In this document: positions 3,671-60,461 of the stretch, piece after piece
How positions within the stretch are numbered: position 1 is the first letter of the stretch
Layout: each line of letters begins with the position of its first letter
Source of the DNA: a bacterium
Lineage (GTDB): Bacteria; UBA8248
Direction of reading: 5' to 3'
DNA length: 64,000 bases
Assembly: GCA_965202625.1 (NCBI GenBank)
Contig: CBDBBI010000010.1
Coordinates: 1,856,001-1,920,000, forward strand
Program-made: the position numbers and the translations under genes
The notes under the pieces: generated by a model
What the model saw: only the letters and a program-made list of their open reading frames with translations
Database searches by the model: none
Told to the model about the DNA's origin: nothing

Positions 3671-5548
3671 CTAATCGCTCGCCGCGGCGCCCCATAGGGC
3701 CTCGGCGACGTCCTCAAGGCCGAGCGCGCGCAAAAGCTCGACTCTGGGACGACCGGTGTCCCTGTCGTAACCTACCGTCTCGTACCAAATGTCGAGCATT
3801 CTCTGCCACTCATCCATGATTGAGACGCCCGCGACCGGCCCATCCACCGGAGTAGAACCGTAGCGCTTGGAGGGCTTCTCGAGCTCGGGGCCGATGCCGC
3901 AGCGCAAGTTGAACGCGCGCATCAAGGCGTTGATGCGGCGGCCGGTCTGTATTGCCTCATCCTTGTCGAGGTCCCATCCGGTGGCCGCCTGAACCGAGCG
4001 GCACAAAATATCCATCGGCGCCCACATGGTGAACACGCACGCCCCCAGAGAATCCTCAAACGCGCGGCGTCCCCTCAGACCGCCTACTTGCTTTGGCACA
4101 GCTTGCGGATCTTGGGGCTCCACGCGCGCGGGCAAGCCATAGTCCGTCGGAAACACCGGAGGGGCGGTATCCAGCGTTCCGCCGGAACCCGTGCAGGTGT
4201 CGATCATCTCCTGCCAGCGGGAGCGGTGGTCGTGCCCTCTCGGGGTATTGCCAATCTCGGTATAAATGGCGCAATTCCGCGCGTCTGCGCCGAGTTTCTC
4301 CGCCGCGCGCTTGGTGCCTTCGGCCAGGAGGTCGCCCATGCCCTCGCGCTTGCAAATCATATCGAGCAGCCTGTTCGCTCCATCAACGTCACCCCATTCC
4401 AGGTGGAAGCCCAGGTCCGCGTCCGTAATATAGCCTTTCTGCTGGCACTCCATCACCCAGCCGCAGAGCCAGCCAAACTCGTTCACATCCACGCAGGCGC
4501 GGTCGAGCTGGGTGTTCATCCAGGAGACCTTCTGGGGGTCGGTGGCACCAATCGTCCAGCCCGCCCCCGACCAACCCTCGTACTCGGGCTCGTCCACCAC
4601 CTGTCCCTTGTAGGGACCAGAGGAGATGACGTGCATGTGGCAATGGTGCATTCCGCATGCGCTGCATTGATGGCCCCGATGATCGAACCCCTCGCGCAGG
4701 CCGTTGGCTTCCCACTGCCCGGTTTCGACTTCCCCTGGCCACACGTTCGTCGTGTAGTTGCGAATCGGAAGCGCGCCCATGCCTTGTAAGTTTCGCACCC
4801 CGCCCAGGGTCCCGTACATGTACAGTCCCTTGGTGGAGGGGTCAGTCTGAAGGCTATGGGCGATGTCGTCTGCCGCCGTGAAGAGCGCTCTGGGATGGGC
4901 GGCGGCGACTCCTTTCTTTCCGCGCTCAATCACCACGGCTTTCACCTTTTTCTTGCCCATGACAGCCCCACAGCCATTCTTGCTGGCCACATGGCCATAA
5001 TCACCCTGTATGGCGGCGAAGCGCACAAGGCTCTCACCAGCGGGCCCAATGCTGTAGACGCTCAGATTGTGGCCGCTCAGCCCCAAGGTTTCCTCGAGTG
5101 CCTGCTGCGTCTCCCAGGTGTCCTTGCCCAACAGCTCGCCGGCATCGCAAAGCGTCACACCCCCATCGTAAACATGGAGGTACGCCCAATCGGGCGATTC
5201 CCCCTGAAATACGATGGCGTCGTAGCCGCAATACTTGAGATTCGCGCCAAAAAAGCCGTTCGCCTGTGTGTTGGTGGCCCCGTTCGTGAGTGCGCCCCGC
5301 GTCACCACGGTAAGCCCGCCAGTTCCCCAAACCGGCAACCCCGCCAGGGGTCCTGTTGCCAAGACGAGCCGGTTTTCGGGATGATCCCAGCCCACCTCGG
5401 ACGGCACCTCATCCCACAGAATCTTGGCACCTAAGCCTGCTCCGCCCACCCACTTTCTGCGGTCGGCCGCTTCAAACCTCTCTCCCCAAGTCTCTCCATT
5501 CGAGAGATCGACACGGAGGATTTCTCCTGCGTATGCGTAATCAGTCAA
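3671..5548 (-). CDS. Aldehyde ferredoxin oxidoreductase family (W/Mo-bis-pterin) catalytic subunit
   Basis: ILRVDLS, IGPAGE..VRFAAI, G.GAVMG.K.VKA, C..C...C and EPEYE motifs. Confidence 0.92.
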   Translation of the reverse strand: MTDYAYAGEILRVDLSNGETWGERFEAADRRKWVGGAGLGAKILWDEVPSEVGWDHPENRLVLATGPLAGLPVWGTGGLTVVTRGALTNGATNTQANGFFGANLKYCGYDAIVFQGESPDWAYLHVYDGGVTLCDAGELLGKDTWETQQALEETLGLSGHNLSVYSIGPAGESLVRFAAIQGDYGHVASKNGCGAVMGKKKVKAVVIERGKKGVAAAHPRALFTAADDIAHSLQTDPSTKGLYMYGTLGGVRNLQGMGALPIRNYTTNVWPGEVETGQWEANGLREGFDHRGHQCSACGMHHCHMHVISSGPYKGQVVDEPEYEGWSGAGWTIGATDPQKVSWMNTQLDRACVDVNEFGWLCGWVMECQQKGYITDADLGFHLEWGDVDGANRLLDMICKREGMGDLLAEGTKRAAEKLGADARNCAIYTEIGNTPRGHDHRSRWQEMIDTCTGSGGTLDTAPPVFPTDYGLPARVEPQDPQAVPKQVGGLRGRRAFEDSLGACVFTMWAPMDILCRSVQAATGWDLDKDEAIQTGRRINALMRAFNLRCGIGPELEKPSKRYGSTPVDGPVAGVSIMDEWQRMLDIWYETVGYDRDTGRPRVELLRALGLEDVAEALWGAAASD

Positions 5549-5566: not shown

Positions 5567-6889
5567 TTATGAAGAGACGGCGATTTCGCCCGCCGGCGTC
5601 GATGGACGCCCGAGAATGGTTTCCGGCAACAGGCCGCCCGCCGCGCCAGAGGCTAGAAACGCGCGTTTGACGTCAAATGGATTCTTGCGCAGATGCGCCT
5701 TCCACGCAGAGATATCCGCTCCCGTATAGACGAGGCCCTTGAGCATCCCCACATCGTTCGTCGTCCAGATATCTCGAGTTTTTCCTAGAATGATCGCGCC
5801 GGTCATCCTCCCGCCACGGCACAGGAGTTTCCTGTAAGCGGGGCGATCCGCCTGCACGACCTCATAAACCTCGGCGCCTGCGTCGTCCCACTCCCCGAAG
5901 CTGGCTACCTCCAGATCGAGGACGTCCACGATGTTCATGAGTAGGCTGCCCTTGTATGCGGTATCCTCTCCCGCCATGTTCGCCGCCGCCACGCGGCCAT
6001 GCTGCATGGCGGTGGGCTCAATGGCGTGCACGACTCTCTCGCCCGTCACGGCGTCAGGCCCTTGCGCGACGTCCCCCGCCGCGTAGATGTTCTCCACGCT
6101 CGTTCGACAACGATCGTCCACCAGAATTCCCCGCTCGATCTCAAGGCCGGCGCCCGCCACCCAGTCAATGTTGGGCTTGATGCCCGTGGCCATGATAACC
6201 ATGTCGACTTCCAGATTGGGGCCATTCCTGAATGTGATGAGTTTGGCTCCCCCCGCGTCCGCAATGGACACCACCTCGGTAGAGGTGCGCACCTCCACTC
6301 CACGCGTGCTTAGCCAGTTTTCGACGATTCCCGCGCCCGCGGTGTCTATCATGCGCGGCAAGACGTGCGATTCTAGCTCCACCACAGTCAGCCGCACCCC
6401 CTGATTCACGAGGGCGTTTAAAATCGTGAAGGCGATGAAGCCCGCGCCGATCATCGCCACGCGGGCACCCTCGCCCACACCGGACACCACGGCGCGCGCC
6501 TGTGGCAACGTCCAGAAGCTGTGCACGTTCCTCCCGTCCGCACCCGGCACAGGCGCCTTCACAGGGGAGGAACCCGTGGCGATCAAGAGGTTGTCGTATG
6601 CAATCTCATCGCCTCTCTCTAAAATTAACCTGTTGGCGGACACGTCGATTCTCTCGGCGCGCGCGCCGAGCCTCGCCTCTACGTTCAGCGACGCGAGCCT
6701 AGAGGGCGTCGCGATGTAAAGGTGGGACTCTGCAATATCCCGCGCCAAGTAATAGGGCAGCACCATCCGCGAATAAGGCGCCTCGTCCGCTATCAAGACG
6801 ATACGGGAATCGCCCCCGTCCAACTCCCTGAGGGTGGCGATGGCGTTCCAGCCGGCCGTCCCGCCGCCTACGATGACGTGTTTGGCCAT
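5567..6889 (-). CDS. FAD/NAD(P)-dependent pyridine nucleotide-disulfide oxidoreductase (AorC-like)
   Basis: IVGGGTAG, LLIATGS, IGAGFIA and IYAAGDVA; start at MAKHVIVGGG. Confidence 0.88.
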   Translation of the reverse strand: MAKHVIVGGGTAGWNAIATLRELDGGDSRIVLIADEAPYSRMVLPYYLARDIAESHLYIATPSRLASLNVEARLGARAERIDVSANRLILERGDEIAYDNLLIATGSSPVKAPVPGADGRNVHSFWTLPQARAVVSGVGEGARVAMIGAGFIAFTILNALVNQGVRLTVVELESHVLPRMIDTAGAGIVENWLSTRGVEVRTSTEVVSIADAGGAKLITFRNGPNLEVDMVIMATGIKPNIDWVAGAGLEIERGILVDDRCRTSVENIYAAGDVAQGPDAVTGERVVHAIEPTAMQHGRVAAANMAGEDTAYKGSLLMNIVDVLDLEVASFGEWDDAGAEVYEVVQADRPAYRKLLCRGGRMTGAIILGKTRDIWTTNDVGMLKGLVYTGADISAWKAHLRKNPFDVKRAFLASGAAGGLLPETILGRPSTPAGEIAVSS

Positions 6890-6891
6890 GA

Positions 6892-7371
6892 TCAGATCAC
6901 CTCCGCAAGCGGCCCGGCGGGCGATTTCGCCCGCTCTGCGGCGAAGGGTCCCACCCAGTCGGCCAGCGCGGCCTCCTCGTAGAGGATGGCGTGCGTGGGA
7001 CATACAGACACGCATGCGGGATTCCCCCCGCACAAGTCGCACTTGAACGCCTTGTGGGTGTCGATGTTATAGAACATCGTGCCATAGGGACACGCGATAG
7101 TGCAGAGCTTGCAGCCCACGCAAACGTCGTTCGCCACCTCCTTCGCTCCGGCCGGTGAGATGCCGATCGCCTCGACGGGACACGCCGTCAGGCACCACGC
7201 CTCGTCACACTGCGGACACGTGTAGGGTGCGTAGCTCGTGTGGCCCTCGAACGAGGACACACGAATCACCGCTTTGGAGGGCTGAAACGTCCCCGTCTGC
7301 TCGTAGGAACACGCGAGCTCGCACCGCATGCAGCCGGTGCACTTCTCAGGAATGATCTTGAGTATTTTCAT
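6892..7371 (-). CDS. 4Fe-4S dicluster protein (AorA-like electron transfer subunit)
   Basis: CTGCMRCELAC, CPQC...CLTACP, CVGCKLCTIACP and KCDLC...CVSVCP. Confidence 0.92.
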   Translation of the reverse strand: MKILKIIPEKCTGCMRCELACSYEQTGTFQPSKAVIRVSSFEGHTSYAPYTCPQCDEAWCLTACPVEAIGISPAGAKEVANDVCVGCKLCTIACPYGTMFYNIDTHKAFKCDLCGGNPACVSVCPTHAILYEEAALADWVGPFAAERAKSPAGPLAEVI

Positions 7372-7494
7372 CGCCCCCCCAAGAGCCTGAATGCGAAAAG
7401 CGCATCATTGAAAAGTGAAGATGACGTCATTTTCTCAGAGATGGGCGATTCAGGTCAAACGAAAACTCCAGGTTCATGGGCAGGCGCGGGCGTC

Positions 7495-8440
7495 AATCGC
7501 CAGAGGTCACCAGGGCGGCCCCCGCCACGACGATGAGCGTGGCCGCCACCAGACGCTTCGTGATAACTTCCACATCGCGCAGCAACACCGGCCGACAACA
7601 AGACGATGAAGATCGAGGTCATACGAATCAGGGGACTGATCACGGCAGTTGCCCATCACGCAGCGAGGCCCAGAACAGCACGGCGGCCGAGAGAGCCAGC
7701 AGGCCTGCCGGAACGCACGCCAAGGCGACTCTCAAGATCGGCTGAAACCGTTGCAACTTTGAGGCGAAGCGCGATGAAGCCAGCAGACCCGCATTGGCGA
7801 TCAACATGGCGAGCAGAATGCCCGACCAAGGAGCGTTCATGGCAGCCAGCCCAGCTTTTCGAAGATAGAGCGTGAAGCAAAACGCGACTAAGGAGATGAG
7901 GGCGAACATGTAGTGCATAAGAGAATGCCCGCCCCTTCCCCTCTCGCCGGCGAGCTAGAACAGTCCTATGACGATCAGGGCGATTCCCACCCAGACGCCC
8001 GGAAGTTCGTTCAGAACCATCACGCCCATCACCGCCGCCCCGATGGGAGAGGCCGCCACAAGGCGTTTGTCCTGCTCATCCCGAGGTCCGCGCTCGAACG
8101 CAAGGCACTACAGCACACCATGAAGTTCCCGACCACGCCGGTCAAGGCTTAGAAAACGAGGGCGACACCTCAATCTCCCTCGTAGCTGTCAGAGAAAAGC
8201 GAATAAAAGGCGGCCAGAACCGCCATCCATCCATTGACCCAAAAGGTGATCGTCAACGCCAAGGCGCACTCTAGCAGCTTGCGAATGAGAATTTGATTAT
8301 CCGCGAATAAAAAAGCGCCCATCAGCACGTGAAACTGCCGGCGACGCGTCCACGATGAAATTCACCACCTCAACGCTCCGCCGTCATAGAAAAACAGAGG
8401 GAAGACGACAGAATCATCACCAAAACAAAACGGGCTGACT
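7495..8440 (-). pseudogene. Decayed EamA/DMT transporter
   Basis: Hydrophobic fragments in shifting frames (LTITFWVNGWMAVLA; GMSRTNAL; ISPLIRMTSIFIVLLS; VLLRDVEVITKRLVAATLIVVAGAALVTSGD*) with stops and frameshifts; 5' limit approximate. Confidence 0.7.
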
Positions 8441-8510
8441 GGTTCAAAGAATACTGCTCTTCCTCTCGTTTGGTCGCTGAGTGAAAAAGCCGCGCCCCTC
8501 TTGGGGGGGG

Positions 8511-8604
8511 CTACCCGCCCAAGATGACCGTCAAAGCGCGCGCCACGGCGAGCACCCCGGACGAGCACGCGCAAATTGACACGATCCAGATTCTGATAAA
8601 AAAT
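8511..8604 (-). pseudogene. C-terminal fragment of the EamA gene split by the IS1595 element
   Basis: Reads IFYQNLDRVNLRVLV..GVLAVARALTVILGG*, continuing the EamA N-terminal part across the TSD. Confidence 0.75.
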
Positions 8605-8627
8605 GGGAATTATATACTATAGTGCCC
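8605..8627 (+). repeat. Terminal inverted repeat, cargo end
   Basis: 20/23 match to the reverse complement of 11992-12014; preceded by the TSD. Confidence 0.9.
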
Positions 8628-8683
8628 TGAAATAACCCCTAAGAATTAGTAAATTCAACAAATCTATTTATATTCATTTCTGC

Positions 8684-8713
8684 TTGACAAATCCAATAAG
8701 CATCCCGCATTAT
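8684..8713 (+). promoter_or_regulatory. Putative sigma70 promoter for the cargo operon
   Basis: TTGACA at 8684-8689 and CATTAT 18 bp downstream. Confidence 0.5.
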
Positions 8714-8723
8714 CACTCCCAGA

Positions 8724-8881
8724 TACCATCATAGAGAGCCCGTCTGTAAAGTCGGGTCGCTCGCTGAATACAATAGCCTTCGCACCCGATTCGGGGTAGC
8801 TCCCCGGACCAAGGTAAATAGGTGAGACCTCACTTTCTCTCTGTGATGGTAGCCAAGACCCGGCCTCGTCGAGATGCCGGG
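8724..8881 (+). ncRNA. Candidate structured RNA or leader, family unassigned
   Basis: 15-bp closing stem 8724-8738/8837-8851 (one G-U pair) enclosing short hairpins, then hairpin 8859-8881. Confidence 0.45.
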
Positions 8882-8913
8882 AATAATGGTTATTTATTTC
8901 ACAGGAGAAAGTC

Positions 8914-9414
8914 ATGGCTTACGCGAAAATTGTCTTTGAAAATCCCAAGAATATGCCTCCCAAGAATATGTCTGGAATCAAAAAATATTTGTCTGGCCAA
9001 CACTATACGCGAAAAGCACCGGTTGGTTTTTCGTGGACAACACTCATGTTTTCATGGTTTGTGCCACTTCAGAGGCATAACTTCAAGTGGCTAGCAATCA
9101 TGTTTTTGTGTGGGTTTCCCGTTTCGATTGCAATATCTGCAAATATAACGGAATTTTCCACATATCCCCGATACATTGCATTCTTTATGATTTTTTTCAG
9201 TGTGATTTGCCGTCTTGTATTTCCTTTCATTTACAACAAAATCCATATCCAGGAATTGATCAAAAAGGGGTTTCGGGCAAAATCACTGCATATTTCATCT
9301 GCGTTGTTGTCTCCTAAAATAGATTCTTTGGATTCTCTTTCCACAAAATGGAATATGACAATTCCGCGCCTCGAAACCGAAAATACTGGAGAAGAATTTC
9401 CAGAAAAGGACTAA
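8914..9414 (+). CDS. Membrane protein, DUF2628-like (transposon cargo)
   Basis: KAPVGFSWTT..F..F.PL.R...KW, transmembrane segments, F.YNK..I..L..KGF; AGGAG RBS. Confidence 0.7.
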   Translation: MAYAKIVFENPKNMPPKNMSGIKKYLSGQHYTRKAPVGFSWTTLMFSWFVPLQRHNFKWLAIMFLCGFPVSIAISANITEFSTYPRYIAFFMIFFSVICRLVFPFIYNKIHIQELIKKGFRAKSLHISSALLSPKIDSLDSLSTKWNMTIPRLETENTGEEFPEKD

Positions 9415-9417
9415 AAT

Positions 9418-9855
9418 GTGGAAGATCGCTCCAAGGAATTGATAGCTCTCAAAGCCAAGCTTAGCGACCGGGAATTTCATGTTCTGCAAAGCGAAATTGC
9501 TCGGCGGAAAAAATCCGTAAGTCTCACTTATGTTTTATGGTTTTTTCTTAGTGGTCTTGGCATCCACAAGTTTTACCTGGGCAAGATTTGGCAGGGGGTG
9601 CTTTATATAATTGCGCCAGCCATTGCCATCATATTTTTAGCCACGGGGTTTTTTATGAGTTTTGATCCATATGCAATAACCTCGTCCGAAGAATTGACGG
9701 AGGGCGAATTTATGATTGCGATAGGTTTTATGGGATTGATAGCCTATGGAATCTGTTGGTTCATAGACTTGTTCACCATTCAGAGTCAGGTGAACAGGTG
9801 CAATGAGGACATCGAAATTGAAACTGTTAAATCTCTTCTGGGAGCATCAAGATGA
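9418..9855 (+). CDS. TM2 domain membrane protein (cargo)
   Basis: KKS...Y.LWFFL.GLG.HKFYLGK...G and W.IDLF.I...V...N. Confidence 0.85.
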   Translation: MEDRSKELIALKAKLSDREFHVLQSEIARRKKSVSLTYVLWFFLSGLGIHKFYLGKIWQGVLYIIAPAIAIIFLATGFFMSFDPYAITSSEELTEGEFMIAIGFMGLIAYGICWFIDLFTIQSQVNRCNEDIEIETVKSLLGASR

Positions 9856-10172
9856 AATCTAATCGGAATCCCTCTTCTGCCAACCCCACTTACCATCATA
9901 TTCCGGCCAATATCGTTCACAGGCTGCTCGAATCGCTCGCCGCAGCTCTAGATACGATTTATCATCGTCCTCAAGAACTTTCCATTGAGGATGCAGTTCA
10001 TAACCTTCATCAGGTGATATTTGATGAAGTGGCCGTGGCGGGTCTGAGCGAAAATGAGAAAGCATTGTTTGATCAGTTGAAACAGCATTTTCTTTATCAG
10101 TGGGCAAAGCGTGAGAAGTTGCGTTCATTAAATTCTCCTAAAATAAGAAATAAAATTCAAAACTATTTATAA
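9852..10172 (+). CDS. Hypothetical protein (cargo)
   Basis: 106-aa ORF with ATGA overlap on the TM2 gene. Confidence 0.55.
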   Translation: MKSNRNPSSANPTYHHIPANIVHRLLESLAAALDTIYHRPQELSIEDAVHNLHQVIFDEVAVAGLSENEKALFDQLKQHFLYQWAKREKLRSLNSPKIRNKIQNYL

Positions 10173-10184
10173 AGGAAATCAGAT

Positions 10185-10715
10185 ATGTTTAAGAAAATTA
10201 AATCAATTTCATTGACAGCAATTCTTTTTTGTTTTTTCTGTTTTTCAAATGTTGGCTTGTCATACGGAAAGGAGGTTGATTCTTTTCAGCAAATTATGAA
10301 TTATCTGTTCATTGGTAATGCGCTTGATGATGGTAAAGTAGACAATCTTTATTACGCAAAAATTTTTGATCGTGAGAAATGTATAGCTGGCTGGGAAGAT
10401 TCCGCAGGCGGATTTCTGAAAATATATTGGAACAACATAGACATAGATTCAATTAAATCTCAAGACAAATTCGCTGATGGCGTCTGGATGAAATACATAT
10501 TATTTTCTGGACATCCTGTTGTGGCGGAAGTTGAACTAAAGAATTTCTTTGTTATTATGGGTCTTGCAGCTAAAGGCGTTGCTACAGGAAAATACTCATT
10601 TATATCTATTCCTCTTGGACAACCTGAAACGCGTGATGATGAGCGTATGGCAAAAGCGATTCAGTTGCTGTATTCAAAACATTGCACTGGACTAAAGACA
10701 AAGATGGCATTTTGA
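10185..10715 (+). CDS. Hypothetical exported protein (cargo)
   Basis: Basic N-terminus plus hydrophobic signal-like segment; AAGGA RBS. Confidence 0.65.
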   Translation: MFKKIKSISLTAILFCFFCFSNVGLSYGKEVDSFQQIMNYLFIGNALDDGKVDNLYYAKIFDREKCIAGWEDSAGGFLKIYWNNIDIDSIKSQDKFADGVWMKYILFSGHPVVAEVELKNFFVIMGLAAKGVATGKYSFISIPLGQPETRDDERMAKAIQLLYSKHCTGLKTKMAF

Positions 10716-10775
10716 TTGGGGGATGAAAATAAATGGAAACCCCAGCAGAAACTCCATCAGTAACAAATTGTGGAT

Positions 10776-10952
10776 TTATTTCGGCTTGTCCGTATGACGT
10801 ATCTGCACTGGACGCAATAAACGTTCCACCGCTTCATCCAGGCTCATTTCTTCCAACGTAAATTCTTCTTCTTTTTCGGCCTTGGAAGGCTGATACGTCG
10901 ATTTTGCGATTTCAATCACCGGTAATTTTTGTTGCGTCTTTTTCTTCGGCAT
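10776..10952 (-). CDS. Small 58-aa protein directly downstream of the transposase
   Basis: MPKKKTQQKLPVIEIAKSTYQPSKAEKEEEFTLEEMSLDEAVERLLRPVQIRHTDKPK*; ATG 1 nt after the transposase stop; below the ORF-track cutoff. Confidence 0.55.
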   Translation of the reverse strand: MPKKKTQQKLPVIEIAKSTYQPSKAEKEEEFTLEEMSLDEAVERLLRPVQIRHTDKPK

Positions 10953-10953
10953 T

Positions 10954-11892
10954 TTAGGCTACCAAATCCTTATACTTGAGCCGTTTCCCGTCCATTCCAT
11001 TCACCATTTTCTCCATCTGGTCAATAGTATCAAGAGGCCGAATGTTATGCCTACCGGAAAACTCATCAACATATTTCTGTAAATGCTTATGGCTCATTCG
11101 ATGATAGGTTCCATGAAATCCCTTTTTGAACATGGCCCAGAATGACTCCACGCCGTTGATGTGCGCCTGCTCGTTCACCCACTCTCCAAGGCCATGACTT
11201 ACGGCCTTGTGATTCTTGAGTCCTTTGTATGACTTGTGCTCGTCTGTATATTTAAGGGCGTTTCCATCCACATTCTCATTCACGAAATCATGTAGCGTTT
11301 CCTGCTTGGTGTCATCTACCACCTTGGCTCGAATCCGATTGGTGCTTCTATCCTTGATACCCACCACGGGAGCCTTTCCCACTGCGCCCCGCCCTTTGTT
11401 TTGTTTCTTGTCCTTGCGTTTGTTCTTTTCGAGTCCGCCCACATACGTCTCGTCTATTTCCACGGGGCCGTTGAAAAAATCTCCGTGAGCTTCAAATACC
11501 TTGCGAATCCGATGGGTCAAGTGCCAAGCGGATTTTTGACTGATTCCCAAGTCTCTATGGAGTTTCATACTGGAAACGCCCTTGAGATTGGTGATGCAGA
11601 AATAGAGTGCCAGCGCCCATACCTGAAAACCAAGATTTGAAGATTCCATGATGGTTTTGGTTCGGACGCTGAATCTTTTTCTGCATTCTTTCTCGCGGCA
11701 ACGAAAAGGCATGGTTTTGTGTTTTGCGCCTATGAGCACGTTCAGGGAACCGCAATAGGGACAACACACGCCCACTGGCCACCTCTTCTCGATAAACCAT
11801 TTCTCGGCGGCCTCATCATCAGGAAACATTCGCAAGGCATCCATGATACTCAATCCCTTTCTGAATGCCTTGCCGGGAGCTTTCTTTGCCAT
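10954..11892 (-). CDS. IS1595-family DDE transposase
   Basis: Zn ribbon CPYC..C.EC, HTH, VEIDETYVGG, YTDE..SY, HINGVESFWA and YVDEFSGRHN; start MAKKAPG after GAGGAG. Confidence 0.95.
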   Translation of the reverse strand: MAKKAPGKAFRKGLSIMDALRMFPDDEAAEKWFIEKRWPVGVCCPYCGSLNVLIGAKHKTMPFRCREKECRKRFSVRTKTIMESSNLGFQVWALALYFCITNLKGVSSMKLHRDLGISQKSAWHLTHRIRKVFEAHGDFFNGPVEIDETYVGGLEKNKRKDKKQNKGRGAVGKAPVVGIKDRSTNRIRAKVVDDTKQETLHDFVNENVDGNALKYTDEHKSYKGLKNHKAVSHGLGEWVNEQAHINGVESFWAMFKKGFHGTYHRMSHKHLQKYVDEFSGRHNIRPLDTIDQMEKMVNGMDGKRLKYKDLVA

Positions 11893-11932
11893 TGATTTCT
11901 CCTCATGTTTTCTCTTGTCATTCAATGGCAAA

Positions 11933-11961
11933 ATTATACTAAATAGTGCCCAAATTGTCAA
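11933..11961 (-). promoter_or_regulatory. Transposase promoter, perfect sigma70 consensus
   Basis: Minus strand reads TTGACA-atttgggcactatttag (17 bp)-TATAAT. Confidence 0.85.
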
Positions 11962-11991
11962 GCGTTATATTTTGGGTGTGATTGCATTCAT

Positions 11992-12014
11992 GGGCACTAT
12001 TGTTTATAAGTCCC
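11992..12014 (-). repeat. Terminal inverted repeat, transposase end
   Basis: Pairs with 8605-8627; followed by TSD TAAAAAAT. Confidence 0.9.
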
Positions 12015-12810
12015 TAAAAAATCCAAAAAAAACAAGAGCAAAAACAAAATGGAGAGCCTGTTTATCGGAATCACCTCTACGAGCCTCCCGCGTTGTATGG
12101 CGAGCCAGAAGCTGTATGCCGAGATGATGTTGAAAAATCCTCCGACGAGCATCCACCAGACGCTCTTCTTACTCCATGTTCTGGGGTTGAGTTCATGGTT
12201 TTTGACGAACGGTATCGAGCCAAGTTGAAGGAGCGCGCCCGTGAGTGCTGTGGCGCAGATGCCGAAGGCGGGAGAGGGTATCGTCTGAAACGCGATCTTG
12301 CGAAGCGGCGGTGCGAAGGAGAAGAAAAAGGCCGCCAAAATCGGCATGAAGATAATGCCAGAATGGGGTCGCGCGACACGCCCCTGCGCCTCTCTCCTGA
12401 ACCAGCGGTATCGCCCCAAAGACGACGGCGAAAGTCCCCAGCGCAACGGGGAAGGTGATGGTCTCGCCAAGCAGGAGCACGGCCAGCAGCGCGCTCCACA
12501 TCGGATGGACTTGCAGCATGATTTGAGAGCGCGCCATTCCGATGAGCGCGGCTGATATAAAATTCAGGTTTCTCGATAAAAAATGAGAGCAAAATCCGGC
12601 CATCACGAACCAGAAAATCCCCGCTAGGGGCCATTTTTCGAGACCCGCGCCCGCCATATAAATGGCTGCGGCGTATGTCGTCAGCGTCAGGTTGCTCGCG
12701 AAGGTGAGCGCCTTTGGGCCCATCCATTGAAGAGCGCCGCGATAGACCGTTTGCGCCGCGGCCAGAAAAACGCCGGACAGGAACGACAACAACACGGGAG
12801 GGAGCGATTC
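12015..12810 (-). pseudogene. EamA/DMT transporter, N-terminal part; frameshifted and IS-interrupted
   Basis: Two overlapping ORFs (12193-12885, 11997-12470) each carry one EamA repeat (P.WSALLAVLLLGE; LVEVIPINRLSILF); truncated at the IS end. Confidence 0.8.
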
Positions 12811-12969
12811 GATCAAGGGCAATCCAGGAAGTCTAGAGGGTGAAATGAACTGACAGGTGCGCATTATGACATGAGAAACCCCCACCCGAAATCAGTGCGC
12901 TTGCCCATGAGAGAGTGTCTTGTGATACATTTCTCCTCTCTTCCCCGCTTCCATTAGAGGACGAGGAAA

Positions 12970-35818: not shown

Positions 35819-36961
35819 CTATTTTCTTATGAGGAACAAGAACTCCCTGTTGGGTTTCTCCACCTCCGGCAGCCAATCATTCGTCCATTTCATAGCAGCC
35901 ATCACGTTCTTTTTATAATCAATTTTTAAGACATCGACAAGTTCTCCATTATCTCTTATCACTTCATTTATCTCCTCAGCAGTCGCTCTTCCACCAGAAC
36001 TGTAAGAGAGCAAAATCCATTTACACGGCGTTTTTTTGACGAGGCGCTCGATTGCCTCCACCACAACGAACCTTCCCGAAGCGTTCCTGCGAAATTCCTC
36101 AAACACCGAAGTTGCCACCTTGTCGGACGTGTCTTTTCTTCGCAAAGCCTTTCCAAAAACTGAGGGTCTGTCGTTCTTGCAAACAGTAGTCCACAGGTGG
36201 TAGTAAGAGGCGTAGCGCACCCTGGAAGGAGGCATTTTTGCATTATTTGAGCCATACGGAGGATCATAATAAGCGAGGTCTGCGTCCGCTTCGGAGAGAG
36301 ACGCAAAAACATCGCCGCACAAGACAACGTTCTCCGTCTCGTTTCGCCATAATCGCGGAACTTTCAATCTCAAATCCTTAAATGACCTGGCAGACCAGTC
36401 TTTCAGGTATGAGGCGAAATGGCCAAGCGTGCTATCCACCCCGTCCAACCCCAGAATCAGGCTCGCCAAAGCCACGCTCTTTGAAACCTCGTCAAGGTTC
36501 AGAACATCAATTTCCTTTCTAATCGCGTCGAGTTTTCTCGTGTTCTTTCTCTGCCAAGGCTTTTTTGTGCCGTCTTTCTGAATGGCGTTGTTGCGGGCGT
36601 CGGTTCTGACATCACCGCCGTAATTCTCGGTAAACCACCCATCTTCAGGAGGGATAGAGTTCAAATAGTCAATGAGCGATTGATATTCTTCCGGGTTTTT
36701 CAGGTTCTGCAAATAACATACGCCAAAAGTCCTTGACCATTCTGAAACGTCGTTCGCCACCACGCGATACCCCGCCTTGGCGAAAGCCTGGCTTACTCTT
36801 GTGGAACCCGAGAAGCCATCAAAAATACTTTTCGCCCCAGTCTTTTTTGACAACTCAAGAATCTGGGGTATCAGTCTAAGTTTGGAGCCTACATACTTGA
36901 CACCCTCGGTCCTAAGGGTTTCGAAGCAACTATCGAAAGGTAGGGCGGCCTGAGCCTGCAT
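35819..36961 (-). CDS. DNA adenine methyltransferase (D12/FokI-NlaIII-like class)
   Basis: KY.GSK, DGFSGS..VS and Y.DPPY; AT-richer than flanks. Confidence 0.88.
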   Translation of the reverse strand: MQAQAALPFDSCFETLRTEGVKYVGSKLRLIPQILELSKKTGAKSIFDGFSGSTRVSQAFAKAGYRVVANDVSEWSRTFGVCYLQNLKNPEEYQSLIDYLNSIPPEDGWFTENYGGDVRTDARNNAIQKDGTKKPWQRKNTRKLDAIRKEIDVLNLDEVSKSVALASLILGLDGVDSTLGHFASYLKDWSARSFKDLRLKVPRLWRNETENVVLCGDVFASLSEADADLAYYDPPYGSNNAKMPPSRVRYASYYHLWTTVCKNDRPSVFGKALRRKDTSDKVATSVFEEFRRNASGRFVVVEAIERLVKKTPCKWILLSYSSGGRATAEEINEVIRDNGELVDVLKIDYKKNVMAAMKWTNDWLPEVEKPNREFLFLIRK

Positions 36962-37843
36962 TACGCCGACCCGAGACCTGAGTCCCTTTTGAGTCTCAGA
37001 ATGTCGCCTTGAATTTTTTCAAGGGCCTCGCCATGGCCGGATTCAGAGGAAACCAGCGCATGAGACAACAAATTCACCAAGACAAGATTATGAGAGTATT
37101 CGATCCATCCACCAGTTACGCTATCAAAATAATCTAAACCATTTTTTGTATGAGTCCAAAGACCCCGTTGGAGAGCATTGGCCGCCGCATCTCCATAACG
37201 CACCTCACAAATATAGGCATCCTGGGCATTATAAAATCGAAATACCGGATGAATTCTACCCCGCTTTTTCGACTCCTTTGAAATTCTTACCGTTTCGACC
37301 TCCGCGCGGTTATAGTCAAAAACAAGAATATTACAACGTTGCTTTTTTTCATCATAAATGAGGGGCAAGACGTTGATATTTCGGAAATCAGAAAAAGCCG
37401 GGTCGGCGAGGACTCGCCGAACATTCTGCCTGCCTATAACGTCCCCGCCCTCTTGCTCTAAACGCGGAAACATCCTTGAAGTCTTTGTCCGTTGAAAGCT
37501 GAAGCGGGCCGTCTCCGTATGCTTTTAAACTGACCGGAAATTCAGCCTTGGTTATCTCATTGATTATTTGAATATCTTCCTCTTTAGACTTCGCCCTGTA
37601 TAGATTCTTGCCAACATGCTGAGATCGAAAATCATACATGTACTGGTTGATAAACTCGGCCATGGCGATTTCCGCCAAATCCCCATGGGTTTTGTTTCCA
37701 ATGAGACGCATGGTAAAAATGTTGCTCAACGTCGTGACGATGAGATCCGGGAATTTGCTGGCAAAGAGTCTCAGTTGCGACGTGAAATCCTTGTAAGGGT
37801 CAAAAGCCGTCTGTCCATATATTCGAGCTTCATCATTTCCCAT
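36961..37843 (-). pseudogene. Putative type II restriction endonuclease, frameshifted near 37474
   Basis: N-part (GDLAE..EEDI..VSLK, PD-(D/E)XK-like) joins the C-part ORF 36961-37473 if one G is removed (AAG-G-ATG); TAATG coupling to the MTase. Confidence 0.6.
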
Positions 37844-55053: not shown

Positions 55054-58000
55054 CTACGCCCGCAGCGACGCGAGCGTCTCCACCCAGAGTTTCAGGTTGC
55101 GCTCGGCGCGCGCCTTGTCCGTCAGCCGCTTGCTGGAGTGGGCCACGTATTCGTTGCGAAAATTGTTCACCTTCGCGATGCGCTCCAGCAGTTTGTTCGC
55201 CTCCGGCAACGAGCGGAACGCCCCGCGCGCGGCGGCGAACACGCCGTCGAGCTTCGGGTCGTCTTTCAGCGCATAGTCGAGGCAGGAGCGCAGCAGGCCG
55301 ATCACGGAAAACGGATTGCCGTAGAGCAGCCCGCGCTTCAATTTTTTCGCCATTTCCCGATAATGCGCGCGCGCTCTTTCGTCTATGTTCCCCCAATGCG
55401 GATCGAACCATGCTTCCTGTTCATGCCGGTTTGTGGGAACCTTGTCGCACAAGCGAATCAGAATCATGGCCTTGCAGGCGTCATCCAGCGGCCCCAGCAG
55501 GGCGGTGAATACGGGGGAGAGATTGGGCGCGTCTTTTTTTCGCTCGAAAAACCGGTAAAGCTCCAGTGCATCCGTCGCCGCCCTCCTCTCCCGCTCTCCC
55601 AGCCTTCCGAACGTCTCCGCCGAGAAGAAACTCTCCGCGTCCGTCTCCTCCCGGGCGAAGAAGGGCAATTCCGGCGCATCCGTCGCCTCGCTCAGCAGAT
55701 TTTGCAGCGCGGGTGCGCAGGAACGCACGAGAGCGTCGAAACGGTTGCTCGTCAACCTCTCCATCACATTCTGGGGAGTGAAGACGTATTCCCACTTGAC
55801 GCCGCTCGAGGCGGCGGCGCGGCACCACTCCATCGCCGCGCGCGCCTTGCGCGACACGTCCGCGTCCTGCCTTCCCTTGGTTTCCACCAGATAATGCGCG
55901 CCGTCCTCCATTCGCACGAAAAAATCCGGCGTATAGAATGCGAGCCGTTGCGCGCGCGTGAGATAGTCAATCCGCAACGCCTGGGGGCCGGCGTTCTTGG
56001 CGAACGCCGCCACGTCCGGAGCGGCGTCAAGAAAGGCCGTCATCGCCACTTCAAGCGACTGGTTGCAGGGCGTGAGATTGAAAAGCGTCTTGTCAGCGCG
56101 CACAACGGGCCGCCGCTCGGAGCTCGTCGCCTGATAGGGCTTCCAGTCGCGCAGGGACGTCCCGCCCCCACCGGCGCGGCGTTTTTTCGTCCGGGTCGTT
56201 CGCGCGCGAATGAGCGGAACGAAGACGGCGCGAATGTGCTCGCGCACGTCCTGATCGGCAAGGCGCGCGGTGAGACGCGGATTGGTCAGGCTCACCTTCT
56301 CGCCGAACAGAATCTCGCCCAGAAAAACTTCCAGCAGCGGGGCGAGGACGGCGTGCGTGCTGCGCACCTTGCAGGCGATCTCCAGCTCAAGGACGTAAAA
56401 CGATATCGCGGTGAAACCGTTCGCGAGCAACTCCAAGCGGACCTCCATCCGCTCGACCACCTCGTCGGTGAACAGATGGCGTCCCTCGTATTTGACCTCG
56501 CGCGCTTCCCCGCGTCCAAGCGGCAGGGAGCGCAAGGGTGCGGCCGCGTTCCGCACGTCCTGGACGGAGAGGTTCTCCAGCGTAGGCTGTATTTTGTGGG
56601 CCGCCGTCAGCGCGGGCAAAACGACGTCGAGCGCATCCCCATCCTTGTGCTCATCCGGAAAAATCGAGACCGTGGTGGCCGGAACCTTATCCGCGTCCGT
56701 CTCTCCTATCGGCAGGCCCTCCTGCTCGAGTTGTTCCTTATACAGACTCGTGAAGGCCGGATGCTCCACCACGACGACCAACTCGTCCGCCCCTCCGGTT
56801 CCGGGCGGCGTCATGCGGCGCAGCCCGCGCCCGAGCGTCTGCTCGGGCAAGATGTTCGCCTGCGCACTGTATGGCCGCAGCGGCACGATGGTGGTGACGT
56901 TGCGCACGTCCCAGCCCTCGCGCAGCATGAGCACGGAAACGATGCAGGCGTAGCGGCTTTCATCGCTGTCCAGCTCCCGGCTGATGCGCCGAAGCGCCTT
57001 GAGGTCCTCATCGCTTATCTGTCTTTCGCTCTCCTCGAAAACGCGTATCTTTTGCCCGCCAACCTCCTTGTTCCTGATTCTTCCCTTGAGATTCGTGTGC
57101 AGGTTGATCGTCTTACCGTTCAGCTCTTTGAAGATCGCGTCGCCGTTCAGCCGACGGGTTATATCGTCCGCCGCCTTGGTGTCCTCGCACATGACGAACA
57201 GCAGGGGTCTCTTGCCGCTCTTCGCCCACTCGTTCCGGCTGTGCCGCCACCGTTCGTAACCGAGGCGCAGATGCGCCTCGTAGCGATAGGCGGCGTCCTC
57301 ATGCGGCTGCTCAACCAGATCGGGCGTGCGGCCGATGATGGGCGTTTTGACAATGCCGGCGTCCACCGCCTCGCCGAGCGGCGTATCGCAGACGACGTGC
57401 GGAAAAAAATAGCCCTTGTTGTCTTTGGGCGTCGCCGAAAAATCCATCTGGGCGACCAGGCCGCCCGCGCGACTGGCCAGTGCTCTGTGAAGCGCGCGTA
57501 TCGCCCCGCTCCACGCCGAGCCCGGATCCCAGACGTGATGCGCCTCGTCGTTCAGCAGCATCACCCGCCGATGGGAAGTAATGCGCTCGCGCAGCTTCGC
57601 ACCGGTATCGAGTGCGCTCGCTCTCGACACGGACGGCCCGGCCCAAGGGTGGGTTTCGGCGTCCCTCCGGCCGCTCCGGCGCTCCTCGAAGAGGCGGTGC
57701 ACGTTGGTGAGGTAGAGTGCGCCTCCGGTCGTCGCCCCGCCCGCCTCATCCTGCAGGATGACCGAGAAATTCCAGTCCCCGCGCCATTCGGGCGGAATGA
57801 GCGGATCCTTCAGGAAGATGTCCGGGCCGCCGCCCTCAGGCCGAAAATCCTCCTTCAGACGCTCGAACACAGTCAGGTTCGGGGCGATGACGAGGAAATG
57901 CCGTGCCATGTCCGATCCGCTTTCTCTCAGAGCGTGAAAATAGCTCCAGACGATGGCGAGGCTCATGCACTTTGTCTTGCCCGCTCCGGTCGCCAGCTTG

Positions 58001-58452
58001 AAGGCGTAGCGCGGCCATTCGTCCTCCTCGGAGCTGACGCCGTAAGCGTCGTTTTCCGCGCCCGCCCCTCCGAACTCGCAGATGAGGGAGGAGAGCGAGC
58101 GGAGGCGGCGCACCTCCATCAGATAGACGAAGGTCTCTATCGCCTCACGCTGACAGAAATAGTAGCGAAACGCGGCTTCCGCCCCATCCGTCTCCATGAT
58201 GCGATGCGGACGCCCGAACCAGTGGTTGAGCAGGGCGCGCGTGGTGCCGCTGGCGCCGACATAGCCCGACTCCCGCCATTCCTTGACGAGTGCGCGCAGT
58301 GGATCGACGAGCCTGTTCGGTGAGGGGCGCCGGTAGGTCTTGATCTCCGCCGGATGCCCCTCCGCCGCGCGGACCCGGTGCTTGTCCGGCTCCTCCCAGG
58401 GGGCGAAAAGGGGCGCCGCAGCGGCAGGGTTGACGACCGGCGTTGGGTTCAT
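55054..58452 (-). CDS. Type III restriction enzyme Res-like subunit (SF2 helicase + PD-(D/E)XK nuclease + C-terminal extension)
   Basis: LATGAGKT, NDEAHH, FSATP, LREGWD, EQ..GRGLR and YTPDF....ETKG. Confidence 0.88.
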   Translation of the reverse strand: MNPTPVVNPAAAAPLFAPWEEPDKHRVRAAEGHPAEIKTYRRPSPNRLVDPLRALVKEWRESGYVGASGTTRALLNHWFGRPHRIMETDGAEAAFRYYFCQREAIETFVYLMEVRRLRSLSSLICEFGGAGAENDAYGVSSEEDEWPRYAFKLATGAGKTKCMSLAIVWSYFHALRESGSDMARHFLVIAPNLTVFERLKEDFRPEGGGPDIFLKDPLIPPEWRGDWNFSVILQDEAGGATTGGALYLTNVHRLFEERRSGRRDAETHPWAGPSVSRASALDTGAKLRERITSHRRVMLLNDEAHHVWDPGSAWSGAIRALHRALASRAGGLVAQMDFSATPKDNKGYFFPHVVCDTPLGEAVDAGIVKTPIIGRTPDLVEQPHEDAAYRYEAHLRLGYERWRHSRNEWAKSGKRPLLFVMCEDTKAADDITRRLNGDAIFKELNGKTINLHTNLKGRIRNKEVGGQKIRVFEESERQISDEDLKALRRISRELDSDESRYACIVSVLMLREGWDVRNVTTIVPLRPYSAQANILPEQTLGRGLRRMTPPGTGGADELVVVVEHPAFTSLYKEQLEQEGLPIGETDADKVPATTVSIFPDEHKDGDALDVVLPALTAAHKIQPTLENLSVQDVRNAAAPLRSLPLGRGEAREVKYEGRHLFTDEVVERMEVRLELLANGFTAISFYVLELEIACKVRSTHAVLAPLLEVFLGEILFGEKVSLTNPRLTARLADQDVREHIRAVFVPLIRARTTRTKKRRAGGGGTSLRDWKPYQATSSERRPVVRADKTLFNLTPCNQSLEVAMTAFLDAAPDVAAFAKNAGPQALRIDYLTRAQRLAFYTPDFFVRMEDGAHYLVETKGRQDADVSRKARAAMEWCRAAASSGVKWEYVFTPQNVMERLTSNRFDALVRSCAPALQNLLSEATDAPELPFFAREETDAESFFSAETFGRLGERERRAATDALELYRFFERKKDAPNLSPVFTALLGPLDDACKAMILIRLCDKVPTNRHEQEAWFDPHWGNIDERARAHYREMAKKLKRGLLYGNPFSVIGLLRSCLDYALKDDPKLDGVFAAARGAFRSLPEANKLLERIAKVNNFRNEYVAHSSKRLTDKARAERNLKLWVETLASLRA

Positions 58453-60461
58453 ACCTGCACCTCGAGAGTGATGCTGGTATCGCAGCCGAACACGTCCACC
58501 ACTTTAATGCAGGCGGTGTGCCTGCCTGCGCTCTCGTAGGAGAAGTGCGCGTCGCTCACCGTCTTGAGGCTTCTGTCCTTTCGCGTGCGGTAGTCCTGCC
58601 AGTGGTGGTGGAAGGGCTGGCCCGGCGCCCAATCAAAATCAACCGCCCAGAAGTCGATGAAGTCAAACCCGTTTTCAACCGCCCGCTCCTCGAGCGCCTC
58701 CAGTTCTTTGGCGGGAACCTCCGTCAGAGAGGGAATGAAGCGGGTGAGCTTCACGTCGGTCGTCTCGTCTTTCCGGATAACCTGCTCGGCGGTGAGTGCC
58801 GCCATCTCGTAAAACGGCGGAATTTCCACCCGGTTCTTTTCCATGATCTCTCTGGGAATGCGGCGCAGGCGCATTTTGAGGTCGAGCTCCGCCTCTATGG
58901 CGGCGACGGATTGATGGACGTCCATCTCGAAATCCCATGCCAGGCAGTTCACCTCGCGCCCGCCCGCCGCCTTGGCGGCTTTGGCGACTTCCGCCGCCTC
59001 CTCCCTCGTGAAAATGCCGTCGATGCCGTCCACGTGAACGAAGGCGCCGCCTTTTCGCCCATGTATGAGCGGAGAGGGCGCGTCGTTCAGAATTTCCGCG
59101 CGGAAGAACTTGAGGACGAGGGCGCGGTGCTCCCCATCCGCCCCGTTCAGGGTCTCGCGCTGCCACCACTGCCGCTCGTAGCGGCCGAGGTTATACACGT
59201 CGAAGGAGCGATAGGGCCTGTCCTCCCTATACACCTCCCGCTGAATCCCTATCATGCGCTTGCGCGTCGTGTGAACGGCGAAGCGCCCGAAATCCGCGCA
59301 TATCCACCGGCGGCCCAGCTTCTCCGCAACCGCCGCCGTCGTGCCCGAACCGCAAAAGAAATCCGCCACCAGATCCCCCTCGTTCGACGACGCTTTCATC
59401 ATGCGTTCAAGGAGGGCTTCCGGCTTTTGGGTCGGGTAGTCAAGGTATTCATTGCCCTGAGTCGCCCTCACGTCAACCCAGACATCACGGCATCTCACAC
59501 CCTTTCCCATGTATAGCTTACGTCCTGGAACCTTGCCCTTTGCAATGATTAATTCACCGTTTTCAATCCAGCGGAGAGCCGTCTCCAAAGGCATTCGGTA
59601 GCCCCCCGATGGCGCTTTTTCACCATATCCTAAATCATAGACGTAGCCTCCACCCCCAGGGTTATCTATTGGCCGCACTTCGGATATCGTCCCTTTTCAT
59701 CAGAATAACGATACAGTTTTTGACTTGCGTCACTGTATTCTTGAAATACATCGTTCCACCGTAGTCCGCCTTTGCGGTAGAAGAAAATTGTTTCGTGGGA
59801 TTTTAAACTTCTTGTTCTTAGATGCGTATCCACCAACTGCGCCGTATGCCAGATAACCTCGTTCTGAAACAAAATTTTCCTTGCCAAAAACTTCATCCAA
59901 AACGTTTCGCAAATAACCACTCACCCGCCAGTCGCAATGCACATAGATGCTTCCGTCCTCGGCGAGCAGTTCCCGCATGAGAGCCAGACGCTCGGACATC
60001 ATGGCGAGGTAGGAGTCCGTCCCCTTTCCCCACGTGTCCCGATATGCGACGAACTCCAGCAGGGATTGCTCCTTGGCGACCGCCTCCCTCCCCTCTCCTA
60101 TCCCCGCCTGAAAGGTGAAGTCCGCGCCCACGTCGAAGGGCGGGTCGATGTAGATGAGGCGTATCTTCCCCCGGAACTCCTCCAGCAGGGAGGCCATCAC
60201 CAGCCTGTTGTCCCCCCAGATGAGGCGGTTTCTGAAACCATCCCGGTGGGCGCGCCCCGCATCGAACAACTCGCCCTGGGCCGCCGCGCGCGAGCGGGGC
60301 TCGTCTATCGTCTCTATCTTCTGAAACGGCATGGCGCGGCCGGCGACGTCCGCCTCCCGACGGTTGCCGAACTCGTCGTATTTCCCCTCCCAGACGAGCT
60401 CCGTCTTCATCCGGAAGAGCGGATGCGGATTGTGCGGGCCAAAAGCGGGCTTGTCGCTCAT
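58449..60461 (-). pseudogene. Type III Mod-like DNA methyltransferase with internal frameshifts
   Basis: IYIDPPF (ORF 59730-60461), NEVIW..HETIFFY (ORF 59666-59920), and YPTQKPE.LL.R plus DFFCGSGTT (ORF 58449-59678); ATGA overlap with res. Confidence 0.85.

Follow-up and report, generated by a model that had tools for sequence, protein, structure and literature searches.

The 64,000-nucleotide stretch of bacterial DNA analysed here (the window; contig CBDBBI010000010.1 of a UBA8248 genome) contains, at window positions 8605-12014, one transposed unit of 3,410 bp lying within a gene of the EamA family. The unit holds a transposase gene (tnp) and a short open reading frame (ORF) directly behind it (orf58), both on the minus strand, and four plus-strand ORFs (c1-c4) that run towards them and are preceded by a structured leader RNA. 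Taken as a whole, the account that we consider very probable is that of a transporter insertion sequence (tIS) in EamA that carries a leader-headed cassette for envelope proteins, with the control and the role proposed below.

The unit is bounded by 23-bp terminal inverted repeats (IRs), the tnp-distal one at 8605-8627 (plus strand, GGGAATTATATAC...AGTGCCC) and the tnp-proximal one at 11992-12014 (minus strand), which are identical at 20 of 23 positions. Only two sites in the 64 kb matched the left-arm 23-mer with up to three mismatches, both of them element ends, and none of 100 shuffles gave any match. A weight matrix made from 53 distinct ends of related elements scored the two arms at 33.6 and 26.6 bits, respectively; these were its only matches in the window, the next best site reaching 10.9 bits. 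Immediately outside the repeats stand two copies of the target-site duplication TAAAAAAT (8597-8604 and 12015-12022), alike at all eight positions, the left one falling at I-F-Y codons of EamA. The G+C content of the element is 0.419, against 0.593 in its flanks and 60.8% in the window without the element.

The interrupted gene lies on the minus strand and is collinear with intact EamA orthologues of 294 aa (77-85% identity), and PF00892 was found in both of its halves, the family having two EamA domains. The 5′ part (12030-12816) corresponds to orthologue residues 1-261, with residues 1-155 at 12816-12349 and residues 156-261 at 12347-12030 in another frame, and the 3′ part (8511-8604) to residues ∼264-294, of which 264-280 lie at 8604-8554. 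Over a single TAAAAAAT the two halves rejoin, the window then giving WIFYQNLDRVNLRV where the orthologue has WIFYQRLERINLRV, and the insertion point falls in the last transmembrane segment. A true empty site would read uninterrupted ...TGGATTTTTTATCAG... with a single TAAAAAAT. Three further frame changes were found, near 12348, in an A8 run at 12026-12033 and near 8550; thus, EamA is a pseudogene beyond the insertion itself. This decay either followed the insertion or was under way before it. The large G+C gap suggests a recent arrival, against which the three extra frameshifts suggest that the insertion is old or that the gene was already decaying. A GC-rich hairpin with a T-run behind it, on the minus strand at 8484-8510, comes directly after the stop codon of EamA (8511-8513) and is probably the terminator of the gene. 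A second EamA-like gene just downstream (7499-8062, minus strand) has 26% identity to orthologue residues 100-293 and in-frame stops, and is probably another pseudogene.

The transposase gene (10954-11895, minus strand) encodes an intact IS1595-family DDE transposase of 313 aa. It matches the IS1595 DDE domain PF12762 (8.9e-39, 133.4 bits, cut-off 27), the N-terminal zinc ribbon PF12760 (27.8 bits, cut-off 25.4) and the NCBIfam IS1595 model NF033547 (180.7 bits, cut-off 75). It aligns end to end with its relatives and keeps every column that is invariant among the 16 intact relatives aligned. D148, D218, E250 and K257 are invariant in these 16 sequences, and their position in the DDE domain suggests that they are the catalytic residues. 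The zinc-ribbon cysteine pairs C45, C48, C66 and C71 are equally invariant.

Relatives were collected by a transposase search of genome contigs, which gave 37 loci with 48-80% transposase identity, all in metagenome-assembled genomes (MAGs) whose taxon labels include Chloroflexota, Acidobacteriota, Pseudomonadota and Gemmatimonadota, four phyla. Paired ends of the type seen in the window, GGGRATTATATAC...AGTGCCS, could be assigned in 30 of the 37, delimiting units of 1,409-7,947 bp. Perfect 8-bp duplications, 80% A+T, flank 23 of these 30 units, the others being L001 (with a 7-bp repeat offset by one), L002, L017, L018, L025, L027 and L033. The closest relative, L001 (80% transposase identity), sits at another genomic site; within its own ends the backbone and the leader RNA are the same, and a gene for a TM2-domain protein is present. 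Non-synonymous divergence (dN) between the window and L001 is 0.127 for tnp and 0.266 for the TM2 gene, and only dN is reported because synonymous sites are saturated.

The short accessory ORF, orf58 (10776-10952, minus strand, 58 codons), begins directly after the transposase gene and carries the motif YQPSKAELE. An iterative search found its family in 24 of the 37 loci as well as in the window, always on the tnp strand, and in 13 elements its end lies 33-39 nt from the end of the element. It has no Pfam match, and no PDB sequence match at E≤1. Its placement across the clade shows that the backbone is IR-tnp-orf58-IR, to which the 1.4-1.5-kb members L017, L018 and L027 come close. Three slots in the clade take cargo. 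One lies upstream of tnp and another separates tnp from orf58; the third, used in the window and L001, is the interval from orf58 to the IR.

The existence of these 1.4-1.5-kb relatives, and the fact that orf58 abuts the right IR in most relatives, could be taken to mean that the 3.4 kb is not one mobile unit at all, but a minimal insertion sequence (tnp and orf58) beside unrelated low-G+C DNA, with the far repeat a solo relic. Against this, the exact 8-bp duplication flanks all 3,410 bp, with EamA resuming on both sides, the arrangement recurs in L001 between that element's own repeats, at its other site, and the family weight matrix found no IR-like site between the two ends, the interval between orf58 and c4 included. 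The solo-relic explanation is thus very improbable indeed. The site GGGGATGAAAATAAATGG at ∼10718 had seemed by eye a possible internal IR bounding a minimal insertion sequence after orf58, and was rejected at <6 bits on the family matrix.

Since no internal end leaves the cargo out, the element is a genuine tIS. Passenger genes c1-c4 stand between its repeats, and 8605-12014 is an intact tIS of the IS1595 family, an established kind of element. The window ends, GGGAATTAT, fit the end 'ggnnatTAT' of ISNwi1, a candidate subgroup for the element. Passenger-bearing forms of this subgroup measure ∼1.75-4.75 kb. The initial annotation had proposed a complete IS1595-family cargo transposon, and this is borne out by its ends, duplication, transposase and relatives. 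The 23-bp repeats with 20 matches and the perfect 8-bp duplication that it listed withstood the shuffle and weight-matrix tests, the transposase that it called intact is so by domain, family model and alignment, and the EamA halves that it saw joining across the duplication do so against the orthologue, with the three extra frameshifts to be added. It had also named two findings that would tell against it, relatives with the cargo genes at this locus but no repeats, and a boundary excluding the cargo. Neither came up: L001 has the leader RNA and a TM2 gene inside repeats of its own at another site, we found no internal end, and the duplications of 23 of the 30 relatives enclose the cargo.

In itself such an element is ordinary, IS1595 tIS having been described since 2009. 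Transporter elements of this family are an established concept (Siguier, Gagnevin and Chandler 2009, as cited in PMC3129680 and in the TnCentral preprint 10.1101/2021.05.26.445724), and by the definition given in the latter they carry, between their repeats, passenger genes that have nothing to do with transposition. With such elements the present one shares a single DDE transposase with an N-terminal zinc ribbon, short IRs, an A/T-rich 8-bp duplication and passengers inside; it differs in that its clade adds orf58 and an IR-like site in the tnp promoter, and in that its passengers form an RNA-headed envelope-protein cassette. The details added here are the orf58 backbone ORF, the promoter copy of the IR, which co-varies with the IR itself, and the self-contained cassette headed by a leader.

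The variation in cargo among relatives with the same repeats, which had been suggested as a check on the element, was catalogued in the 30 delimited relatives, and the cargo within the repeats is diverse. A Pfam scan covered 116 of 153 ORFs, transposases and ORFs overlapping them being left out. DNA methylase-containing cargo was found in 10 of the 30 elements, as a methylase fused to HNH (L004, L012, L013, L014 and L016), to T5orf172 (L005) or to Mrr (L022), as a methylase alone (L009), as a Type IIG-like enzyme of 875 aa (L036), and as HSDR_N with a methylase and specificity protein (L037). Antitoxin-like genes were found in two of the 30. Cargo genes other than methylases comprise SocA/Panacea (antitoxin-like, L024), HicB-like (L025), retropepsin-like proteases (L010 and L020), DUF2188 (L002 and L003), DUF1508 (L021), TPR and glycosyltransferase proteins (L019) and TM2 (L001), and ten elements gave no Pfam match. 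L004 and L007 have identical ends and different cargo. A clade with common 23-bp ends, labels from four phyla and cargo made up mostly of methylase-nuclease fusions and antitoxin-like genes can thus be seen as a compact vehicle that moves defence-type and unknown genes between phyla. Furuta, Abe and Kobayashi 2010 (PMC2853133) describe transposon-like restriction-modification units with inverted repeats and 8-bp duplications, and a unit of Neisseria gonorrhoeae that includes a gene with a transposase motif. The sister elements resemble such units in holding methylase-nuclease fusions or Type IIG-like enzymes between IRs with 8-bp duplications, and the element in the window differs in having no restriction-modification gene.

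Its own passengers form a set of four ORFs on the plus strand that overlap or lie close together and run towards tnp, in agreement with the convergent four-gene operon first described. The first, c1 (8914-9414), encodes a 166-aa membrane protein with two strong hydrophobic segments. It has 19 relatives in 5.8 billion clusters and matches phrog_4915 (4.8e-14). The initial annotation had called it DUF2628-like, a label that we drop: c1 matched no Pfam family at E≤10, and none of the 20 members of its family matched DUF2628. DUF6693 was matched weakly by 6 of the 20 (best 3.8e-4). The second ORF, c2 (9418-9855), encodes a 145-aa membrane protein with two or three hydrophobic segments. It was correctly named a TM2 protein, matching PF05154 at 1.4e-11 (44.8 bits, cut-off 27.9), and it also matches eight TM2 phrogs and is 62% identical to its homologue in L001. 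By this domain match c2 belongs with the TM2-domain proteins, a name that says nothing of its role because the function of bacterial TM2 proteins is not known.

The start of c3 (9852-10172; 106 aa) overlaps the c2 stop. The product has no hydrophobic segment, would be soluble and is a near-orphan, with three relatives among 1.84 billion representatives, of which P0030 (56% identity) alone is convincing. The other two, P0031 and P0032 (1,445 and 1,267 aa, with cadherin/RTX repeats), were judged to be compositional matches. The last ORF, c4 (10185-10715), encodes a 176-aa exported protein, as had been proposed, of Sec type and with a signal-like N-terminus. It has seven relatives in 5.8 billion clusters. 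Conservation extends over the mature protein, in which two cysteines and a C-terminal K-x-K-x-A-F do not vary, and a protein atlas search returned unnamed clusters only. Its AlphaFold model has a predicted local distance difference test (pLDDT) score of 76 and a predicted template modelling (pTM) score of 0.69. The earlier description of four envelope proteins thus holds for three of the products and fails for c3. The ORFs that it listed are present, and its inventory missed orf58 and the structured leader RNA.

This RNA lies in the 285 nt between the IR and c1. A sigma-70-like sequence at 8684-8713 (plus strand, TTGACA-18-CATTAT, 10 of 12 consensus positions) is the putative cargo promoter, and is followed by a structured leader of ∼140 nt at 8724-8864 (plus strand). 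Its stems are P0 (8724-8738 with 8837-8851) and P1 (8751-8758 with 8857-8864), with P2-P4 between, and its loops contain the conserved sequences GAAUACAAnAG and GAAUA. Between the window and L001, 8719-8884 is 83% identical, above the transposase gene (76.6%) and the TM2 gene (69%), in a comparison in which synonymous sites are saturated.

Besides the window and L001, a profile search followed by a covariance model found the RNA in L021, L026, L019 and L025, and a further copy in L033, outside the training set, scored 50 bits with P0-P3 intact, giving copies in seven elements. The 27 pairs of the nested stems P1-P4 are 94.5% paired in the seven sequences, against 30-52% when the 3′ partner is slid by 1-3 columns, and 16 of the 27 have changed on both sides, which was reached by 0 of 500 shuffles. 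Since G-U pairs are frequent, the RNA strand is the cargo strand. P0 crosses P1 and co-varies: every copy has a contiguous Watson-Crick stem of 7-12 bp, with sequences that are unrelated between copies. Shuffled sequences matched the length of this stem in 19, 1, 0, 95, 5 and 3 of 2000 trials for the six copies so treated, the P0 of L033 having been assigned by eye.

The covariance model gave seven matches in 587 kb, every one of them within an element and on the opposite strand to tnp; six are convergent with it and that of L025 is divergent. Each stands directly upstream of a gene whose product has a signal peptide, a lipobox or transmembrane segments, and promoter-like hexamers end 32-38 nt before P1 in four of the seven cassettes. 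Behind the leader, L021 encodes lipoproteins, L025 a secreted HExxH protein and L019 TPR and glycosyltransferase proteins. The gene behind the L025 leader (5860-6681 of that locus, minus strand) encodes 273 aa with a signal peptide and the sequence HEMAHALH (HExxH, metalloprotease-like), and has no Pfam match. On a quick transposase tree, from which the short or broken transposases of L022, L024, L030, L031 and L035 were left out, the RNA-bearing elements are scattered, with five label changes, no fewer than with shuffled labels. The cassette thus either passes from one backbone to another or is frequently lost.

A second fold of the same region is predicted. In a hairpin at 8832-8912 (plus strand), the c1 ribosome-binding region is paired with the 3′ strand of P0, and the apical stem takes up the 3′ strand of P1. 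This hairpin is the minimum-energy fold (−39.9 kcal/mol, z −4.9), and the same fold was obtained for L001. The existence of two competing folds suggests an off/on switch. In the off state, the long hairpin would bury the c1 ribosome-binding site together with the 3′ strand of P1; in the on state, the covariation-supported fold of P0, P1 and P2-P4 would leave the ribosome-binding site free, so that the leader would gate the production of the envelope proteins. At L033, directly after the leader (9230-9280 of that locus, minus strand), a stem ACAACCGG...CCGGTTGT followed by T5 overlaps the 3′ strands of P0 and P1 and is terminator/antiterminator-like.

The leader resembles sRNA-Xcc1, a small RNA (sRNA) that the title of Chen et al. 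2011 describes as trans-acting and as transferred by transposons and plasmids. A scan of the whole window at Rfam gathering thresholds returned nothing, and one of 8400-12200 at E≤10 returned chance-level matches only. Matches to the sRNA-Xcc1 model RF02221 (gathering score 53 bits) appeared only in narrow-region Rfam scans, in two of the five regions scanned, with full-length alignments (model positions 1-87) at 28.1 bits (E = 0.003) for L021 and 15.4 bits (E = 3) for the window. In common with sRNA-Xcc1, the leader has a GC-rich closing P1, P2, an AAUACAA/GAAU internal loop and P3, and occurs on mobile elements directly upstream of a gene. It differs in measuring ∼115 nt from P1 to P1, against 87, in having an extra P4 (in six of seven copies) and the extra, co-varying, long-range P0 that crosses P1, and in occurring upstream of exported or membrane proteins in MAGs whose labels include Acidobacteriota and Pseudomonadota (several being labelled without a phylum). 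By sequence and fold, the leader is probably a divergent relative of sRNA-Xcc1 and, by the Rfam rule, not a member of that family. A blastn search of plasmid and phage collections with the leader RNA gave no match.

Published accounts describe sRNA-Xcc1 as an 88-nt transcript of Xanthomonas campestris, ∼100 nt on Northern blots, and as trans-acting (PMC2996969). In the Xanthomonas integron cassette that is most widespread, its location is upstream of symE, a toxin gene (10.1101/2025.06.18.660453), and in some APSE phages it precedes a gene with an ORF6N domain; Xylella fastidiosa has seven copies, five of them within one genomic island. If sRNA-Xcc1 is a discrete transcript of this kind, the RNA at 8724-8864 could likewise be an independent sRNA gene acting in trans and merely upstream of the cargo, the cargo genes being under their own control. 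The RF02221 consensus ends in a U-run straight after P1, and U-runs follow P1 by ∼5-25 nt in L025, L019 and L033. In the window and L001, by contrast, P1 has no U-run directly behind it, the start codon follows P1 by 45-50 nt, an interval in which no further promoter-like site occurs, and there is complementarity between the c1 ribosome-binding region and the 3′ strand of P0; moreover, the RNA is immediately upstream of a same-strand ORF in seven of seven cases. An independent sRNA gene is therefore rather unlikely. That an sRNA-Xcc1-like leader may gate the envelope-protein set in cis is the best-supported mechanistic statement.

Several results weigh against this reading of the leader and of the cassette behind it. 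The off-state hairpin is found in the window and its close relative L001 only, and the leader RNA as a whole depends on seven sequences from ∼5 lineages. Both RF02221 alignments score below the gathering threshold, and three of the five narrow regions scanned (L026, L033 and L025) did not match the model; the discrete, trans-acting character of sRNA-Xcc1 itself has been weighed above. The interval from c4 to orf58 showed no terminator-like site. Since L001 shares only the leader RNA and TM2, its other cassette ORFs being unrelated, c1-c4 need not act together. Comparison of c1 with the first cassette ORF of L001, and of c3 with its 91-aa ORF, showed them to be unrelated. Nothing links c1-c4 to any function: profiles of c1 and c4 found nothing in PDB sequence searches at E≤1, c3 found two chance-level matches only (E 0.42 and 0.49), and a Foldseek search of the PDB with the c4 model gave no match at E≤0.001, the best being weak PH-like or coat-protein folds. 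In PADLOC, c1, c2, c4, orf58 and tnp had no match at E≤1, and c3 had two weak DruF matches (E 0.018).

For the role of the cargo, where the surface, phage-exclusion and host-interaction functions put forward in the initial annotation are guesses, the sister elements offer a comparison. Because they mostly carry restriction-modification or antitoxin-like genes, and symE stands behind the canonical sRNA-Xcc1, we tentatively suggest that the cassette is a self-serving membrane module, toxin- or exclusion-like, that would favour the retention and spread of the element. This is the weakest step of the account, with a chance well short of even. The restriction-modification cargo of ten sister elements in 30 and the antitoxin-like cargo of two could also point to a membrane-acting anti-phage module, working by superinfection exclusion or abortive infection, and the families of c1 and TM2 include phage-encoded members (phrog_4915 and the eight TM2 phrogs). 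Those phage homologues are annotated as hypothetical or simply as 'TM2 domain-containing', though, the two families do not occur together in the same phages, and the PADLOC result offers no significant match, which makes an anti-phage module improbable.

The diversity of exported proteins encoded in leader-headed cassettes would also suit cargo of use to the bacterium, either an envelope stress module or a factor for its surface or for host interaction. The leader would then be a sensor, a riboswitch or second-messenger switch, and a conserved core, crossing P0 and P1 and a competing hairpin are all features of riboswitches. Yet the downstream genes have no common theme that would indicate one ligand, the Rfam scans matched no ligand pocket or known class, and the family that the RNA resembles has been described as an sRNA. 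We regard a sensor of this kind as more improbable still than the anti-phage module.

In outline, the DDE transposase inserted the element into EamA with an 8-bp duplication, and the DNA between orf58 and the far IR is a portable expression cassette, read towards tnp and consisting of a sigma-70-like promoter, the leader and four translationally coupled ORFs. In the mechanism that we favour, it would be under the two-state control set out above, with the self-serving role suggested for its products. That an sRNA-Xcc1-related RNA recurs on mobile elements in front of diverse genes for exported proteins suggests that this RNA, whose biology is poorly understood, has a role in cis. A wider generalization would be that the leader represents a larger subclass of sRNA-Xcc1 with crossing P0 and P1, acting as a cis switch between its two folds and moving, along with genes for exported or membrane proteins that may be toxic, as a plug-in cassette of IS1595-type transposons and, by extension, of integrons and phages, across phyla. 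We consider this doubtful. If it were true, 'sRNA-Xcc1' would be a widespread cis-regulatory leader of mobile cargo, perhaps sensing a ligand or signal, and not a trans-acting sRNA of Xanthomonas.

The transposase, too, may be under control. Its gene is preceded by a promoter with all 12 consensus positions (11933-11961, minus strand, TTGACA-17-TATAAT), and the spacer and −10 box of this promoter contain the inner part of the IR once more, in inverted orientation (11932-11951, plus strand). The promoter copy and the inner IR read GGGCACTAT and ATAGTGCCC in the window, GGGGACTT and AAGTCCCC in L020 and L036, and CGGCACT and AGTGCCG in L034; the copy thus co-varies with the IR in these three relatives. 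It is likely to be an operator for the transposase, which would bind there and repress its own synthesis. Together with orf58, the co-varying copy provides a testable handle on the regulation of the element.

Some of the related loci are themselves rearranged. L017 and L018 lie on one contig, ∼8.5 kb apart, and are identical 1,534-bp minimal copies (tnp and an orf58-like ORF) with unmatched duplications (2/8 and 3/8); the pair could be a composite transposon or reflect recombination between copies. The transposase of L024 is split (7001-7723 and 10193-10594), with its C-terminal DDE segment (profile positions 101-153) 2.4 kb downstream and a 592-aa opposite-strand ORF between the parts, an arrangement that resembles an insertion into tnp. 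Extra IR-like sites occur beside or outside the assigned elements of L037 (4499-11382; sites at 4499 and 11360) and L023 (6934-14616; sites at 9588, 11079 and 14594). An orf58 homologue lies past the end of the inner element of L037, and both loci look like nested or tandem elements of the clade.

The host genome has ∼60% G+C, and the Tol-Pal genes in the window indicate a two-membrane envelope; LigA and MreB are encoded nearby, and a scan of the window for tRNA and tmRNA genes found none. A second low-G+C island (35819-37473, 0.47-0.50 against ∼0.62) encodes a D12-class N6-adenine DNA methyltransferase (35819-36961, minus strand), next to which is a 170-aa ORF without a Pfam match; the two may be a restriction-modification pair that was acquired. 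A Type III-like restriction locus at 55054-60461 (minus strand) encodes a ResIII helicase/nuclease of 1,132 aa. The N6_N4 methylase halves of this locus lie in separate ORFs (58449-59678 and 59730-60461), so that its mod gene may be split or frameshifted.

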